A stretch of 64,000 nucleotides of DNA, from NCBI GenBank assembly GCA_002793855.1, contig PFET01000012.1:6222-70221 (forward strand). The letters run 5' to 3'. Below, one piece after another: positions 8,588 to 42,761 of the stretch. The notes below the pieces were generated by a model that was given only the letters and a program-made list of their open reading frames with translations, did not search any database and was not told where the DNA came from. Each line of letters starts with the position of its first letter. Positions within the stretch are counted from its first letter, which is position 1. Source of the stretch: Candidatus Uhrbacteria bacterium CG10_big_fil_rev_8_21_14_0_10_48_11 (GTDB lineage Bacteria; Patescibacteriota; Patescibacteriia; GWA2-46-9). The position numbers and the translations under genes were made by a program.

Positions 8588-8917
8588 TTATATGATCGTA
8601 AATGAACCGTCGGCAATCGCCTCGTGAAGGGCAAGTACGTCATCAGCCGTTACTGGCTGGCGCTCTTTAGCAAGTACTTCGTCACTTGCTAAATCGGTCA
8701 ATATCCCAACTGAGTTCACGCCGAACATGTTTGCAAAGATGAGCGCCACTACAGCGCTCTTGCACTTTACGCAGGGCACGTGCAAAAGGTACGCATCTTC
8801 CTTTTCAGCAATCACCTTGGCGGCGCTGGGCTGATACCGTGTCTGGCACAGCGGGCAGCGAGCCATAAGGCGAAAGCCTTCTTGGAAAAACGACCGATCC
8901 AAATCATGCATTGCCAT
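8588..8917 (-). CDS. Hypothetical CxxC..CxxC zinc-ribbon protein (about 109 aa)
   Basis: CPLCQ...CVKCKS motifs. A TTGACA-17-TATAGT promoter lies inside the longer track ORF, so the start was moved to MAMHDLDR. Confidence 0.45.
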   Translation of the reverse strand: MAMHDLDRSFFQEGFRLMARCPLCQTRYQPSAAKVIAEKEDAYLLHVPCVKCKSAVVALIFANMFGVNSVGILTDLASDEVLAKERQPVTADDVLALHEAIADGSFTII

Positions 8918-8933
8918 AATAAAGTACGGGCGA

Positions 8934-8962
8934 ACTATATCAGGTGAGAGAACAAGTGTCAA
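8934..8962 (-). promoter_or_regulatory. Promoter TTGACA-17-TATAGT driving the zinc-ribbon gene and rplY
   Basis: Near-consensus hexamers on the minus strand, with the 5'UTR running from about 8927 to 8918. Confidence 0.5.
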
Positions 8963-8967
8963 GAAAA

Positions 8968-9040
8968 TGAAATCGGGGCGGCCAGCTTGTAAGCCGTCCG
9001 CCCCGACAGTCTTTCCACTCCGTCCTCCTGAGGGAGTGGC
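8968..9040 (-). terminator. Two stem-loops downstream of leuA (putative terminator)
   Basis: ggggcgg..ccgcccc and ccactcc..ggagtgg inverted repeats immediately 3' of the leuA stop. Confidence 0.4.
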
Positions 9041-9046
9041 CGCTCT

Positions 9047-10618
9047 TCAGGGCACAGGATCGTTTGATCGTCGGTTCTTGGTCGTGACCAATCGCACAAG
9101 CTCAAGACGGTTTATGGCGTCAACGTAGGCCAACGCCGACGCCATTACCACATCGGTGTGATTACCCCTTCCGCGGACAGCAATCTCACCCGTCCGGATC
9201 AGTACACTGACCTCGCCAAGTGCATCGGTGCCGCCAGTCAATCCTTTCGCCTGATAGCCCTCCAGCACCGAATAAACATAAGTACTTTTTTTGATGGCCT
9301 CGTAGCAGGCGTCAATGAGGCCATCGCCCGTCGCTGTGGCAGACTGCGATTTACCATCAATACTAATGGTCACCGCTACCTCAGGGTCTCCGTGGAGGCT
9401 TGCGACAACCCGTACATCCTCCAGCACGAACCGCTGACTGGCATCGGACTCATCACCAATCGCCACCACAATCAGATCTTCCGAAAAGATCTGGCCCTTT
9501 TTGTCAGCCAGCAACTTAAAGCGAGTAAATGCATCGCTAAAGTTGATAACCCTGGGATCAAATCCCAACTCGCGCAATGCCTTACTAAAGGCATGTCGGC
9601 CGGAATGCTTACCAAGCACCAGCGTGTTGCTGATCCGACCGACATCTTCAGGCCGCATGATCTCGTAGGTCCTGACGTTCTTGAGCACGCCATCCTGATG
9701 AATGCCCGCCTCGTGCGCGAACGCATTCGCGCCAACGATTGGTTTCGTCGGTGCAATCGTCATCCCGATCATTTTCGAAAGTGTCTGACTCGCCAGATAG
9801 ATCTGCTTCGCATTGACACGGGTGTTAATGACAAAGTGATCGTATCGAGTATTGAGCGCCATCACCACCTCTTCCAGCGCGGTATTGCCGGCTCGCTCAC
9901 CGATCCCATTGATGGTGCACTCAACCTGCCGCGCTCCGCCCTCGACCGCGGCCAAGGAATTGGCAACCGCCAGCCCCAGGTCGTTGTGACAGTGCGTGCT
10001 CCAGATGACCTGATCCGCGCTCTCCGTGCGCGCACGCAGGGTCTCGAACATCTGCCGAATTTTATCAGGTACTCCGTAGCCCGTGGTGTCGGGAACGTTG
10101 CAGACGCGGGCGCCAGCACGAATTACCTCGCCAAAGACCTGGCACAGGTAGTCGGTGTCGCTGCGCGACGCGTCCTCTGCCGAGAACTCAATGTAATCGA
10201 CGTACCTGCTGGCACGCTCGACCGCCCAAGCCGCGGCGTCAATGACCTCCTGCCGGCTCATCCCCAGCTTGTACCGCAAATGGATGTCCGAGGTCGCGAT
10301 AAAGACATGGATCCCTGGGGACTTGGCGCCATCCACTGCTCTCAACGCCGTCTCGATATCGGCCTCGCGAGTGCGAGCCAAGCTCAAGACTACGGGCCCG
10401 TCGACGGCACGAGCTACCGCCTTCACAGACTCTAAATCCCCCGGAGACGCAGCCGCAAAGCCAGCTTCTATGACGTCGACTCCGAGCGCCTCAAGCTGCC
10501 GCGCAACGGCGAGCTTCTCATCAACGTTCATCGTGCAGCCCGGCGACTGCTCTCCGTCACGTAGGGTCGTATCGAAGATCCGAACCCAGTCATTACTTCC
10601 GTCCCTGTATTTTCCCAT
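9047..10618 (-). CDS. leuA: 2-isopropylmalate synthase (LeuA family, with C-terminal regulatory domain); GC about 58-60%
   Basis: [30 protein letters not shown], and a C-terminal GDGLIDA LeuA_dimer domain; 523 aa. GC and GC3 are clearly higher than in the flanking genes. Confidence 0.85.
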
Positions 10619-10856
10619 TTTCTTTCCTCGCCTCTAGCCGCCCAAAGGACGGGTTGTTCAGTTGTAAAGAACAAACAAAAAAGCTCACCACCTGTGGTGG
10701 AGAGCTTTCGTACGAGTATCTTAAAATAAGCTACGCGCGAGACAACTCTCCACCCCTGGTCGGGGTGAGCAACGGAAGAAGAAGGGAGATTGTACTCTGG
10801 TAGAACTTCATAACTAAAAATAGACTAACGCCAGCCATAATACCTGTCAAGTACTG
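10619..10856 (-). promoter_or_regulatory. Leucine leader-peptide transcription attenuator: leaderless 26-aa ORF (10731..10811) MKFYQSTISLLLPLLTPTRGGELSRA, then an antiterminator/terminator pair
   Basis: Five Leu codons in six (CTT CTT CTT CCG TTG CTC). The 1:2 hairpin is CTCACCCC/GGGGTGGAG. The 2:3 antiterminator pairs GGTGGAGAG with CTCTCCACC. The 3:4 terminator GCTC-T-CCACC-aca-GGTGG-T-GAGC plus T6 sits at about 10675..10710, and the leader stop codon lies just past region 2. Confidence 0.65.
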
Positions 10857-11990
10857 TTAGACGGTGGCCACTTTCGAAACTTGGTAACCACGCGAACCTT
10901 CCGAGCGAGCGATGTTCTGCACAATACCCAGAAGCGCTAGGTGAACCAACAGCGAACTGCCACCCGCCGAAACCAAAGGGAAAGGAATACCAACAACCGG
11001 CACCAAACCCATCGACATACCAGCATTTACAAAAATCTCCACCGAAAACAATATAATGCTGCCAAGAATAAGAAAAGCAGCAAACCAATCCTGACAACGA
11101 TTGAGCAGTATAAACATTCGCACGTACATAATACCAAAAACACCCAACAGCACGACGATACCCGCAAAACCTAACTGTTCGGCAATGACGGCAAAAATAA
11201 AATCTGTTTCCGCTTCTGGTAAAAAACGAAGCTGACTCTGTGAACCTTCACCCAGTCCCCTCCCAACAAGCTGTCCGGCACCAACGGCAATGGTTGCTTG
11301 TCGCACATTATACGTAGCTGAGGTGACTGCTGTCGGCGAGAAAAAAGTTGCAATGCGTTCTTTTTGGTACGGCTTAAATAAGAAAAACCAAGCAACGGCA
11401 AAAAGGACAACAGCGGTAATCGTCGCCACAATAAAATATTTTCGCTTTACGCCAATAACGAGAACTAAACCTGCCCACAACGCCAGCAGAAGCGCTGCCG
11501 AGCCAAAGTCTGGCTGAAAAAAAACGAGTGCTGCCAAAAAAGCGGCAACAAAAAAACTCTGTGCTAAATTGCTAAGAAGATCCAGTTCTCGCGAGCGCCT
11601 CGCAAAATAAGAAGCAAGCACAATAACACCAACTAGCTTTGCAAGCTCCACCGGCTGAAAACGAAGTGAACCTACACCAATCCATCCGCGCGTACCGTTT
11701 ACCACCTGTCCAAACACCAAGGTTACGGCAAGTAGCGCAAGCATCGCCACGTACAACCAACGGCTCATCGACTGCCAGCTATGAAAGTCAATAAAACTTA
11801 ACCCTAGGTAAAGAACAAAACCGACCGCTGCAATAATGAGCTGTTTCTGAAACGTGTAGAGGTCTCCCCCGCCTCGACCAATGGCAACACTGTAAAGCGT
11901 AACGAGGCCAATGCCGGATACCAAAACAGTACCGGCGAATAAAGGCCAGTCGAAGCGTCCGACAAAATCTCTGATCCGCCGTGCGGTCAT
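10857..11990 (-). CDS. SEDS-family cell-wall polymerase (FtsW/RodA)
   Basis: 377 aa polytopic membrane protein with FtsW/RodA-like composition; an mrdA-mreDCB cluster lies elsewhere in the window. Confidence 0.75.
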   Translation of the reverse strand: MTARRIRDFVGRFDWPLFAGTVLVSGIGLVTLYSVAIGRGGGDLYTFQKQLIIAAVGFVLYLGLSFIDFHSWQSMSRWLYVAMLALLAVTLVFGQVVNGTRGWIGVGSLRFQPVELAKLVGVIVLASYFARRSRELDLLSNLAQSFFVAAFLAALVFFQPDFGSAALLLALWAGLVLVIGVKRKYFIVATITAVVLFAVAWFFLFKPYQKERIATFFSPTAVTSATYNVRQATIAVGAGQLVGRGLGEGSQSQLRFLPEAETDFIFAVIAEQLGFAGIVVLLGVFGIMYVRMFILLNRCQDWFAAFLILGSIILFSVEIFVNAGMSMGLVPVVGIPFPLVSAGGSSLLVHLALLGIVQNIARSEGSRGYQVSKVATV

Positions 11991-25422: not shown

Positions 25423-25515
25423 TTCCCTTCCTCCCCACTCGTTGGTGGTGTGTCATGAAGTTGTCAAAGAGCGGGTTGCCCCCTTCTCGAGTCGATATCC
25501 GTTTCTCGACGGATA

Positions 25516-25546
25516 GAAAACGCCAGCCCCGATGAAGGGCTGGCGT
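25516..25546 (-). terminator. Hairpin ACGCCAGCCC-cgatgaa-GGGCTGGCGT followed by TTTCT
   Basis: 10-bp stem, 140 nt downstream of the disrupted gene's stop. Confidence 0.5.
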
Positions 25547-25681
25547 TGAAACTCAAGAGATACTTTAGCTACAACGTAAACCTTCCACCGCAAGTGGGCT
25601 GGCTAATAATGCTAATAATCTGAATTGCGCGAAGGTCCATATCGCTAAAATAGTAACAAGGCAGCTATTCCCGGTCAAGTC

Positions 25682-26910
25682 CTAGTGCGTCGGTCCAGCT
25701 GGTGTAAACAAATCCGTTTCGAAACGAGCTACTTCTGTACCCGTAGGATAATTATCAGCTGTAGGATCAACCTGTTTAACTAGGTAGTGGGTACTAAAAT
25801 TATTTTCCTTAAAACCTTCTTTGGTAAGTAATCGTTTTTCTCCATTCATAATAAGGTAACGTTCGTTCGATTTCTTGTACTGGATAATAGTACCGTCCGG
25901 ATGTACGTCGCTTGACGTAATAGGCGCCCCGACAGAAAAGGAAACAAAGTACCCATCTGGGATTGTTATTGCATTTTTTCCCAGTGCTTACCATAGAGTG
26001 CCTCACCAATTTCGTTCGTTGTAATTTCTCGAAGGTAACCATTGGGCGTTACTGCGTAAATTTTTGAATCGTTCTCAATTTTTACCAACGTTGTACCGGG
26101 ACGAATAAGCACATTGCCAGCAGTCGGCAATGAAGCAATAAAATCAAATGACACATCTACAACGTTCGACTGGTTTGGGTACCAGGTACGAAAAATATCT
26201 TTGTACAAAACGTCCTTACCTTTGGCGTCGTCATGCAGCGCAAAAAACGCATAGCGCTTGAGGTCGTTTCCAATATAGTAGTAAAGCTCATTACCTGAAT
26301 GGTCAGTATAACGAATAACCGAACCAGCCCCGATTACTGGACGCTGTTTGGTAACAGCGTGTCGTACGTTTACGGACTATTTAGCTCCGGCATTGGTAAC
26401 AGTAAGGTCAGTGAGGTGAGCCCGCAGTGTCGCTTTGATAGGCACAGTGTCCAAAATTGTTCCATAAACAGAAAGAGTTGTAGTGCTACCAGATGAAACC
26501 AAGAAAGGGCTCGGCATCGTAAAATCAACGATACGAACATTATTATTTTCTTTGACTACTGCTATGTCGCTTGCTGATGTCGTCGTACAGTTACTTTCAA
26601 TACACGTTCTGATTACAACATATACATTGTCACCGACAGCAGTGACACCATTATTTCGATCATCTATTTTTACTGTTCCCTTTATTGTTTCAATCTCCCC
26701 ATTTATTGGTGCGTGGACGTAAAAACTAGCAATTTCCAGATTGGCACCCGGCGCTAGCTCGTTGGGCTGAGGCGCCGCCTCTCCTAACCCTACGCCTACA
26801 ATTATCGTATTAGCCTTGCGCGCATAACTTACCGTAGGCAGCAACGTTAGTGCCAAAACAATTGAAAAAACGGTAATAATGGTTCGATTTCGCATAGAAA
26901 ATAACGGCAA
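25682..26910 (-). pseudogene. Disrupted secreted repeat protein (about 409 codons): signal peptide, in-frame TAG at 26377..26379, and a +1 shift needed in the A6 tract at 25974..25979
   Basis: A non-random protein frame continues straight through the TAG for 136 codons. Adding one A to GGGAAAAAATG restores the frame into IPDGYFVSF...PTH. The C-terminal repeats resemble those of the 974-aa protein. Confidence 0.55.
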
Positions 26911-41561: not shown

Positions 41562-42761
41562 CTATTCGTCGTAGAGACGAATGAGCTCGTTGTACTTGTT
41601 GATTCTCTCGTTTCTCGGAGCCCCAATTTTAACCGCATCCGCGCTGCCGGCCTTTGCTAGCTCGATAATAAAGGGATCATCCGTCTCTCCTGAACGATGA
41701 GAGACAATAGTGGTGAGTTTATGCTGGCGAGCGATTTCTAGCGCCCTACACGACTCACTTACCGTTCCTACCTGATTCGGCTTAATGATAACCCCGCTAA
41801 TGCAAGCACGCTCGGCAAACCCCTCAATACGCTTTGGGTTTGTTACCGTAAGATCGTCACCAACAACCGAAAGATTAGGCAATGCCTCCAAAAGAGCGGC
41901 AAACCCCTCAGCGTCATCTTCAGCAAAAGGATCCTCGATACTAATAAGCCTAGGGATTTCGGTAGTAAATTTCTTGTACACTTCAACCATTTCCCCCGCA
42001 TTTATTGTTTTGCCACCAAATCGGTAACTCCCGTCATGATAAAAACTAGAAGCTGCGGCATCAAGCGCCAAGGATAAGCGATCCGAAAGCGACGACTCTT
42101 CTATGAGCGAGCTAAGTATTTTTAATGGTTCTTCATTGTTTTTAAAATCTACACAGTAGCCAGCTTCGTCACCAACCGGCAGTGCTTCCAGCTTACGGGA
42201 AGTGCGGAGCTGTTCCCCCAAAGTTCGGTAGAGAGCCACCAGTTCTTGTGTTAGTTCGGCGTAGGATATTTTTGGAGCAGCCACGAGCATATACTCTTGA
42301 ATAGCAAGATTGTTAGCAGCATGCTCGCCACCATTAATGACATTACTGTAAATGCGCGGACGAACGGCACCACTAACGTGGGCAAAAAACTCTTCGTGCA
42401 GTACCTCTGAAAGTTGCCTTGACTGTTCGGCGGCTAACGCGCGAGAGAGGGCAACAGAAATCGCAAGCGTAATGTTGCCGCCAAGTATAGCCTTGGTATC
42501 TGTTGTATCAATCCCTAGCAGTAGCTCGTCAACTTCATGAACGGAGCCGTACTCTCTGCCGAGCATTGCCTTTCGAAGCGCCTCAATTGACTGTTCGGCT
42601 TCATGGTACGAAAACACTTTTGCCTCTGCACTACCACGACTTTTACCTGAGGGCACCGCAGCACGATGAGAAACACGAGCGCCGTCGAGTGCTACAACTT
42701 CGATGGTCGGCTCACCACGAGAGTCAAAAATTTTTCTGACGCGTAGATCGTCTAACTTCAT
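41562..42761 (-). CDS. eno: Enolase
   Basis: SHRSGETDD, IIKPNQVGT and NGGEHA motifs; 399 aa. Confidence 0.95.
   Translation of the reverse strand: MKLDDLRVRKIFDSRGEPTIEVVALDGARVSHRAAVPSGKSRGSAEAKVFSYHEAEQSIEALRKAMLGREYGSVHEVDELLLGIDTTDTKAILGGNITLAISVALSRALAAEQSRQLSEVLHEEFFAHVSGAVRPRIYSNVINGGEHAANNLAIQEYMLVAAPKISYAELTQELVALYRTLGEQLRTSRKLEALPVGDEAGYCVDFKNNEEPLKILSSLIEESSLSDRLSLALDAAASSFYHDGSYRFGGKTINAGEMVEVYKKFTTEIPRLISIEDPFAEDDAEGFAALLEALPNLSVVGDDLTVTNPKRIEGFAERACISGVIIKPNQVGTVSESCRALEIARQHKLTTIVSHRSGETDDPFIIELAKAGSADAVKIGAPRNERINKYNELIRLYDE

Follow-up and report, generated by a model that had tools for sequence, protein, structure and literature searches.

A predicted leucine attenuator ahead of leuA in Candidatus Uhrbacteria and a sister leader with isoleucine codons

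Introduction

Why would a bacterium that is not expected to make its own amino acids carry a leucine attenuator? Candidate Phyla Radiation (CPR, Patescibacteria) bacteria are thought to rely on partners for amino acids and are usually regarded as unable to make them. To our knowledge, almost nothing is known about gene regulation in this group. The question was raised by a stretch of 64,000 nt from Candidatus Uhrbacteria bacterium CG10_big_fil_rev_8_21_14_0_10_48_11 (contig PFET01000012.1, positions 6,222 to 70,221), which is called the window and is numbered from its first letter. In this window, leuA, the gene of 2-isopropylmalate synthase, follows a short open reading frame (ORF) that carries a leucine-codon run. 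We analyzed this leader and concluded that it is probably a ribosome-mediated transcription attenuator that sets leuA expression by the supply of charged tRNA-Leu. The conclusion was drawn from the sequence, from related loci and from modelled folding. The mechanism is textbook and was already known, including leaderless Leu leaders in Actinobacteria. The CPR host is unexpected, and a sister leader with swapped codon specificity, an apparently leaderless ORF and a lone, probably horizontally acquired leuA are also notable.

The initial annotation of the locus, made from the letters alone, had placed this attenuator in a reduced genome without other amino-acid biosynthesis here. This agreed with our results. 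The genes flanking the leuA unit were patescibacterial, and no intact amino-acid biosynthesis gene besides leuA was found within the 64-kb window.

The leader ahead of leuA

The stop codon of rodA is at 10857, and the predicted promoter of the leader begins 7 nt past it (Table 1). The promoter was absent from the list of a simple promoter scan because its −10 box, TAGTCT, has only 3/6 consensus matches. It was called because the −35 box is perfect, the spacing is 17 nt and the same arrangement is kept in relatives. The initial annotation had described a 26-aa leader ORF with five Leu codons in six ahead of leuA, and this ORF was present on the minus strand at the position given. CTT was the most frequent Leu codon in window genes (30%), which ruled out a rare-codon design as in E. 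coli leuL.

Three helices, 1:2, 2:3 and 3:4, can form in the leader RNA. They use common nucleotides and are mutually exclusive. The initial annotation had proposed this arrangement together with a terminator with T6, and had called for the energies of the alternative structures to be compared. Folding gave −12.8, −28.4 and −17.0 kcal/mol, and the alternative pairings were stable. The fold of the whole leader had z = −3.66 against 200 dinucleotide shuffles, and 0/200 folded as well. The outer helix of 2:3 enclosed a conserved inner hairpin (10742–10708), which holds the leader stop codon. The stem of the 3:4 terminator contained a central U·U mismatch. Region 1 was a near-repeat of region 3, as was region 2 of region 4 (10677–10768), and 2:3 was far stronger than 1:2. 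Because of these near-repeats, the minimum free energy (MFE) fold of the free full-length leader nested a 1:4 helix around 2:3 (−48.3 kcal/mol).

In the proposed mechanism, transcription would start at or a few nt before the leader AUG, and a ribosome would load without a Shine-Dalgarno (SD) sequence and trail the polymerase. With ample Leu-tRNA, the ribosome would reach the UAG (10733–10731), cover the 3' half of region 2 and melt the inner hairpin. Region 3 could then pair with region 4, and the resulting GC-rich hairpin with U6 would stop the polymerase short of leuA. Under a shortage of Leu-tRNA, the ribosome would stall in CUU-CUU-CUU-CCG-UUG-CUC, and the exposed region 2 would capture region 3 in the much stronger 2:3 helix. 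With 2:3 formed, the terminator would be blocked, and the polymerase would enter leuA, which would be translated from its own strong SD. The transcription start site, translation of the leader, its coupling to transcription and the way the system responds in vivo are the parts of this model that we infer.

Dependence on ribosome position

The switch was modelled by masking the nucleotides that a ribosome would cover, from −15 to +12 of the A-site codon, and computing how probable the terminator stem was in the ensemble. For a ribosome placed at each of the five Leu codons in turn, the probability was 0.00, 0.52, 0.03, 0.00 and 0.00, and for one placed at the stop codon it was 1.00. As a control, the Leu run and the terminator were fixed and the spacer was shuffled with dinucleotides preserved (n = 300). 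The observed switch size was 0.886, the shuffled spacers gave 0.04 ± 0.16, and 3/300 shuffles matched the observed value. The modelled footprints thus switched the terminator in the way that the initial annotation had expected from the geometry of ribosome-mediated attenuation. A kinetic version was also computed, in which the 3' arm of the terminator was not yet transcribed. The 5' arm was captured by upstream RNA with a probability of 0.81–1.0 in the stalled states, compared to 0.08 at the stop codon.

The leader ORF has no SD. The distance between the −10 box and the AUG was 10 nt in the Leu leader of the window, 6–15 nt in the CPR relatives and 9 nt in the sister leader described below. 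An SD-like tetramer was found in only 5/34 window genes, and two of the five were leuA and a gene for a 185-aa protein behind the sister leader, both internal to their transcripts. In addition, −10-like boxes were enriched 0–12 nt before start codons, for example at pgk (2805), hyp292 (12879), an addA-like gene (40954) and miaA (24514). SD-independent, probably leaderless, initiation looks normal for this genome. Because SD-poor genes and −10-like boxes near start codons occur across it, a leaderless Leu leader transcript with a predicted 5' untranslated region (UTR) of about 0–4 nt is plausible.

A sister leader with isoleucine codons

A paralogous attenuator was found about 14 kb from the Leu attenuator. 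In this leader, the ORF carries Ile codons at the place of the Leu run. The GTAGCT motif of the Leu leader was also present, followed by an inner hairpin and a terminator, and the energies were −20.0 kcal/mol for 2:3 and −19.8 kcal/mol for the terminator. A near-repeat, GCCAGCCC, occurred in both region 1 and region 3. In the footprint model, the terminator probability was 0.00 with the ribosome at Ile codons 6–9 and 0.99 at the stop codon. The relationship was recovered by a covariance model that was trained on six CPR Leu leaders only. The model found the Ile leader with 21.1 bits (E ~1e-4), and apart from the Leu leader itself and the mirror image of that leader, nothing else in the window gave a significant match. 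It also found the leader of locus L134, which was outside the training set, with 37 bits.

The Ile leader precedes the 185-aa protein, a stand-alone allosteric domain of the LeuA/CimA type whose gene has a strong SD (GGGGAGGAAGGGAA). Its best NCBIfam match was citramalate synthase TIGR00977 at positions 388–516 of 526, which is the C-terminal regulatory region (E = 5.7e-12). A word-indexed search for homologues returned only the protein itself. Citramalate synthase, a paralogue of LeuA, belongs to the isoleucine pathway. The regulatory codons thus track the downstream gene, Leu with leuA and Ile with the cimA-like gene, which argues strongly for ribosome-mediated attenuation. A decoding-based sensor predicts exactly such a swap of Leu for Ile codons on one RNA scaffold, and a ligand- or protein-binding RNA does not.

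Conservation in CPR relatives

Homologous leaders were found at six further CPR-lineage loci (L067, L069, L071, L077, L134 and L136), which made seven with the window. The gene order gyrB-hyp-rodA-[leader-leuA]-hyp-L25-prmC-prfA, where hyp is a hypothetical gene, was common to the independent Patescibacteria contigs L067, L069/L070 and L071/L072. In 7/7 CPR loci, a promoter of the form TTGAC[AG]-16/17-TAnnnT ended 6–15 nt ahead of the leader AUG, and the Leu-run ORF, the three alternative helices and the terminator were kept. The syntenic LeuA of the relatives, where leuA was present, was only 50–67% identical to that of the window, and the leader was therefore kept over considerable divergence. 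The metagenome collection was also scanned with a degenerate DNA pattern for more leaders of the CPR type, and among the 61 hits only L077, L111 and L127 were genuine. In the case of L077 (165–1200), a near-identical leader lies ahead of an unrelated 270-aa ORF with no Pfam match.

Conservation of pairing was measured in the alignment of the seven CPR leaders, and slid partners served as controls. For the 3:4 terminator, 93% of cells were paired, compared to 43–52% in the slid controls, and 2 pairs were changed on both sides. The 2:3 antiterminator had 85% of cells paired (90% in the main helix), compared to 36–46%, with 4 pairs changed on both sides. Helix 1:2 gave 86%, compared to 37–65%, with 2 such pairs.

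The Leu run was kept in every related leader. The initial annotation had made its reading depend on conservation of the run at homologous loci, and it was conserved in 7 CPR and 16 Binatia-type loci. A hairpin with a T-run was present at the equivalent place in 22/22 leaders examined from both groups.

Table 1. Positions and properties of the leader elements, neighbouring features and leader peptides
Feature	Coordinates	Strand	Sequence or property
Promoter of the Leu leader, predicted, sigma-70-type	10822..10850	−	−35 TTGACA 10850–10845; 17-nt spacer; −10 TAGTCT 10827–10822
Leu leader ORF, 26 codons + TAG	ATG 10811 to TAG 10733–10731	−	MKFYQSTISLLLPLLTPTRGGELSRA; from sequence, with homologous ORFs in relatives
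Regulatory codon run	10767..10784	−	CTT CTT CTT CCG TTG CTC; 5 Leu codons out of 6
Region 1	10768–10762	−	UCACCCC; shares nucleotides with the last Leu codon and the two codons after it
Region 2	10756–10744	−	GGGGUGGAGAGUU; from sequence
Region 3	10706–10696	−	AGCUCUCCACC; from sequence
Helix 1:2	10750..10768	−	UCACCCC / GGGGUGG; −12.8 kcal/mol
Antiterminator 2:3	10696..10754	−	outer helix GGUGGAGAGUU (10754–10744) / AGCUCUCCACC (10706–10696); −27 to −28.4 kcal/mol
Intrinsic terminator 3:4	10677..10705	−	GCUCUCCACC-ACA-GGUGGUGAGC (10705–10683) + U6 (10682–10677); −17.0 kcal/mol
Small hairpin	10638..10653	−	CCCGUCC-UUU-GGGCGG; between terminator and leuA SD; in MFE fold
leuA, 2-isopropylmalate synthase, 523 aa	9047..10618	−	NCBIfam NF002086 689 bits (cut-off 532); TIGR00973 612 (cut-off 599)
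Terminator downstream of leuA	8961..9005	−	CGGGGCGG ... CCGCCCCG + T-rich tail; direct sequence reading
Promoter of the next gene	8962–8934	−	TTGACA-17-TATAGT; from sequence
Paralogous attenuator	25509..25678	−	promoter TTGACC (25678–25673), 17 nt, TACTAT (25655–25650), 9 nt, then ATG
Ile leader ORF	ATG 25640 to TAG 25569	−	MDLRAIQIISIISQPTCGGRFTL; 5 Ile ATT codons in 7
Ile leader terminator	25545–25517	−	CGCCAGCCC (25545–25537) / GGGCUGGCG (25529–25521) + UUUU; −19.8 kcal/mol
Stand-alone LeuA/CimA allosteric-domain protein, 185 aa	24865..25422	−	Pfam LeuA_dimer E = 1.3e-17; PJE75650.1
L067 leader peptide			MYRLQSLTLLPLSLLTPRKGEELSCA
L069 leader peptide			MHKLSNNLLLLNLLLLTKDGELTCA
L071 leader peptide			MIIRFQNNLLLSLPLPLTLTQGGVLNGV
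L134 leader peptide			MQKQSINLNNLLLFNGEE
L077 leader peptide			MYRLPSLTLLTVSLLTLRKGGELSCA
L136 leader peptide			MQKQMNNLHLALLLRLPGGRFTCV

The leuA unit and its origin

The leuA product was full length, including the C-terminal LeuA allosteric domain, and the catalytic motifs were invariant in the alignment. The gene has a strong SD, GAGGAAAG, at 10629–10622. Since it has its own promoter upstream and a terminator downstream, promoter, leader and leuA form a self-contained monocistronic unit.

The exact LeuA (PJE75635.1), RodA and other window proteins are deposited under Candidatus Uhrbacteria. Relatives of RodA were Patescibacteria throughout, at 80%, 66%, 61% identity and lower. In the case of LeuA, the closest enzymes (60–73% identity) were on contigs mostly labelled Binatia or Binataceae, and identity to gammaproteobacterial or streptococcal LeuA was only about 43%. 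In a neighbour-joining tree without bootstrap support, in which two CPR sequences were on long branches, the CPR and Binatia-type enzymes grouped together. Contamination of the bin or a chimeric contig was ruled out as the source of the Binatia-like leuA, because the rodA-leader-leuA-hyp-L25 synteny recurred in independent Patescibacteria contigs from other samples.

Sixteen Binatia-type leuA loci were compared (L001–L013, L043, L058 and L063), and the taxonomic labels of these contigs of metagenome-assembled genomes were mixed. They had the closest LeuA and the same promoter-ORF-terminator architecture as the CPR unit. A short ORF with a Leu run, LLL(L), was present ahead of leuA in 16/16 loci, for example MIRAAQITRSLLLLRRPSGALAVV or MSRNLHLGLLLSLALIRAHGRCVEVQI, and MIFDSSRLTHSLLPGLSLSIPSGVGGCER in L005. 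These ORFs had 24–32 codons. All 15 loci put through the terminator test, from which L005 was left out, had a strong terminator before leuA. The TTGAC-type promoter abutted the AUG in most loci, and some had 5' UTRs of 19–97 nt. The 'Binatia A' leaders and the CPR leaders had a common ...GTAGCT ORF end. However, the helix sequences of the Binatia-type leaders were unrelated to those of the CPR, their terminators were much stronger and GC-rich, and the covariance model of the CPR leaders did not detect them. In the equilibrium model, the terminator of these leaders won in every ribosome state, which left the kinetic test as the informative one. In the kinetic capture test, the Binataceae-type group gave 0.5–0.9 when stalled, compared to 0.00–0.11 at the stop codon, which was the same trend as in the CPR, and the 'Binatia A' group was weak.

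In one Patescibacteria sublineage, the unit is flanked by rodA and a small conserved gene, and its LeuA is closest to Binatia-type enzymes. For this reason, the whole promoter-leader-leuA-terminator unit was probably acquired horizontally. The common LeuA clade, the common architecture and the shared ORF end suggest that gene and leader moved together between Binatia-type bacteria and CPR. An 'empty-site' proof of the insertion was considered and rejected. Loci L135 and L137 have rodA-hyp-L25 with neither leader nor leuA, yet L136 has the leader without leuA. Loss therefore occurs too, and the direction and timing of the transfer stay at the level of inference.

Comparison with known leaders

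The window leader resembled the enterobacterial leu operon attenuator, leuL (Rfam Leu_leader, RF00512). In each, a short Leu-run ORF is combined with alternative helices 1:2, 2:3 and 3:4, and an intrinsic terminator lies ahead of the first gene for leucine. The window leader would sense Leu-tRNA by ribosome position with the same logic. However, the enterobacterial leader contains rare CUA codons and an SD, whereas the window leader has no SD, its promoter abuts the AUG and the codon that it uses, CUU, is the commonest Leu codon of the window genes. In addition, the window attenuator would govern a lone leuA, not leuABCD, and its free RNA was antiterminated in the model. It also had no Rfam match. 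With Rfam 15, nothing was found at gathering thresholds in the whole window, and neither a leader family nor a T-box was found in 10500–11000 even at E ≤ 10.

Leaderless Leu leader peptides before a monocistronic leuA were reported from RNA-seq in Streptomyces lividans (LeuL1, MRFGLLLLSCRGEGL), and a comparable leu leader ORF in Corynebacterium diphtheriae (MNRANLLLLRRGGSQA), where the start site is not always mapped in Corynebacterium (PMC8079986, PMC5784534). The window leader was similar in having a Leu-run ORF at the transcript 5' end, as predicted here, and a monocistronic leuA. The peptides were also alike, LLLL-RR-GG versus LLLPLLTPTRGG. However, actinobacterial leuA leaders have no typical intrinsic terminator and were proposed to act via a pseudoknot or SD pairing (PMC8079986, PMC5784534, PMC1262725). 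The window leader has a canonical hairpin with a U6 terminator and a strong antiterminator, and the phylum differs. In full-text searches, we found no leader peptide or attenuation in CPR, and leuA in CPR genomes was mentioned only in passing (PMC9938205, PMC11608272).

Weighing of alternative explanations

Several results weighed against a working attenuator. In the free Leu leader RNA at equilibrium, the antiterminated nested fold was preferred (terminator probability 0.00). Termination would therefore strictly need a translating ribosome that reaches the stop codon. Untranslated leader RNA is predicted to read through, which is the opposite of the 'superattenuation' of the trp paradigm. Covariation among the seven CPR leaders was supportive but modest (2, 4 and 2 pairs), and the shuffle controls were not decisive. 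In Streptomyces coelicolor, mutations of the Leu codons in the leuA leader did not fit classical attenuation (discussed in PMC1262725). The gene content was also unfavourable. No leuB, leuCD or ilv genes were found in the 64-kb window, and the Ile leader precedes only a regulatory-domain fragment. Decay was seen in the relatives as well. Locus L136 (4162–4290) has the leader and terminator without leuA, and L134 (4111–5438) has an 18-codon leader, a TATAAT box ending 6 nt before the AUG and a 386-aa LeuA without the allosteric domain. Taken with the Ile leader before its fragment, this decay could mean that the element is a relic.

If so, the attenuator would have come with leuA by horizontal transfer and would still be recognizable, regulating nothing useful because the rest of the leucine pathway is lacking. 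The missing leu and ilv genes, L136, L134, the fragment-like protein of the sister leader and the lack of the whole unit in L135 and L137 would all agree with this. However, the helices, the promoter, the Leu run and the reading frame were kept while LeuA diverged to 50–67% identity, and some of the changes were compensatory. LeuA of the window was full length and above the curated cut-offs, and the window switch was cleaner than 99% of the shuffles. The absence of the pathway was seen in the 64-kb window only and is not established genome-wide. We therefore consider a decaying relic unlikely.

The two remaining explanations leave out the sensing ribosome altogether. A terminator after rodA would be unremarkable, and CU-rich and GA-rich repeats easily yield alternative helices. 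Across the region, a simple scan found terminator-like sites about twice as often as in shuffled sequence. On this view, the element would be nothing more than an intrinsic terminator or insulator that separates rodA from leuA, with the short ORF and the alternative pairings arising by chance. However, it lies downstream of a conserved promoter and not directly after rodA, and the ORF, the Leu run and the stop position were conserved in the 7 CPR and 16 Binatia-type loci. The rarity of shuffles that match the switch and the paralogue with Ile codons were also inconsistent with chance. This explanation was close to refuted, and we give it hardly any weight.

A leader that binds a ligand, a tRNA or a protein was very unlikely as well. 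Such a leader would be a T-box, a riboswitch or a translational control resembling the LEU element, in which the Leu-codon run and the leuA SD box form a base stem, a pseudoknot is present and a terminator is lacking (Seliverstov et al. 2005; PMC1262725). This proposed pairing had a counterpart here, since the CUU run is paired to the purine-rich SD of leuA in the MFE fold of the long leader. However, 210/300 shuffled SDs formed a duplex as good as that of the window, the results were mixed in relatives, and the clear terminator is absent from LEU elements. Pairing of the LEU-element type was therefore rejected. A T-box was rejected because no Rfam family, T-box included, was matched even at E = 10, and because the conserved feature is a translatable ORF with a start, a codon run and a stop. 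The swap of Leu for Ile in the paralogue fits a decoding-based sensor and not a ligand pocket. A ribosome-mediated attenuator was the most consistent with these results.

Implications

At least one Uhrbacteria-like lineage may have retained regulation by the amino-acid supply, or may have gained such regulation and preserved it since. Outside Actinobacteria, the leader would be a concrete, testable case in which predicted leaderless translation is linked to the termination of transcription. With Leu codons in one copy and Ile codons in the other, the two leaders would amount to a natural specificity-swap experiment on a single RNA scaffold. A metabolic question also arises from the lone leuA, which is the use of 2-isopropylmalate synthase in a CPR cell. 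Neither the CPR element nor its Binatia-type counterparts are represented in Rfam, and new families could be built from them.

A further reading can be put forward tentatively, although we regard it as rather doubtful. The CPR lineage might actively monitor the charging of both tRNA-Leu and tRNA-Ile through a private family of leaderless attenuators that was diversified by codon swapping. One copy would drive an intact, horizontally acquired leuA. The other would drive a stand-alone CimA/LeuA allosteric domain, which may be a free isoleucine-binding regulator rather than a dead fragment. If this were true, it would point to a retained or partner-complemented branched-chain amino-acid pathway in CPR, or to a new role of 2-isopropylmalate synthase.

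Other features of the window

The other annotated genes of the window encode ribosomal proteins, aminoacyl-tRNA synthetases and proteins of replication, cell shape and lower glycolysis, and the rest were unassigned. Genes for ribosomal proteins and aminoacyl-tRNA synthetases, which are dense in the window, are preceded by known leaders in many bacteria. The number of Rfam matches at gathering thresholds in 1–64000 was 0, as was the number of tRNA genes.

Between leuA and the L25 gene, a conserved 109-aa ORF (8588–8917, minus strand) with CPLC...CVKC cysteine pairs has its own promoter at 8934–8962. Neither Pfam nor NCBIfam gave a match for it. All CPR relatives, including those without leuA, have a similarly sized ORF at the same position.

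The small hairpin at 10638–10653 had an identical sequence in L067 and L077, and other hairpins were found at the same place in L069 and L071. Its sequence was similar to that of a helix in the 'Binatia A' leaders, GCCCGTCCGGGG / GCGGGCGGG.

Next to the Ile leader, a series of consecutive ORFs (about 177, 80, 77 and 55 aa) was found at 25682–26910 on the minus strand, several of them overlapping in different frames. It looks like one secreted-protein gene split by frameshifts, one of which is at an A-run near 25975. The broken series would be either a pseudogene or an assembly error.

Two enolase-like genes were present on the minus strand, at 392–1561 and 41562–42761. One was a clear enolase (Enolase_C, E = 1e-63). 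The other was very divergent and matched both enolase domains weakly (E ~1e-7 to 1e-8).

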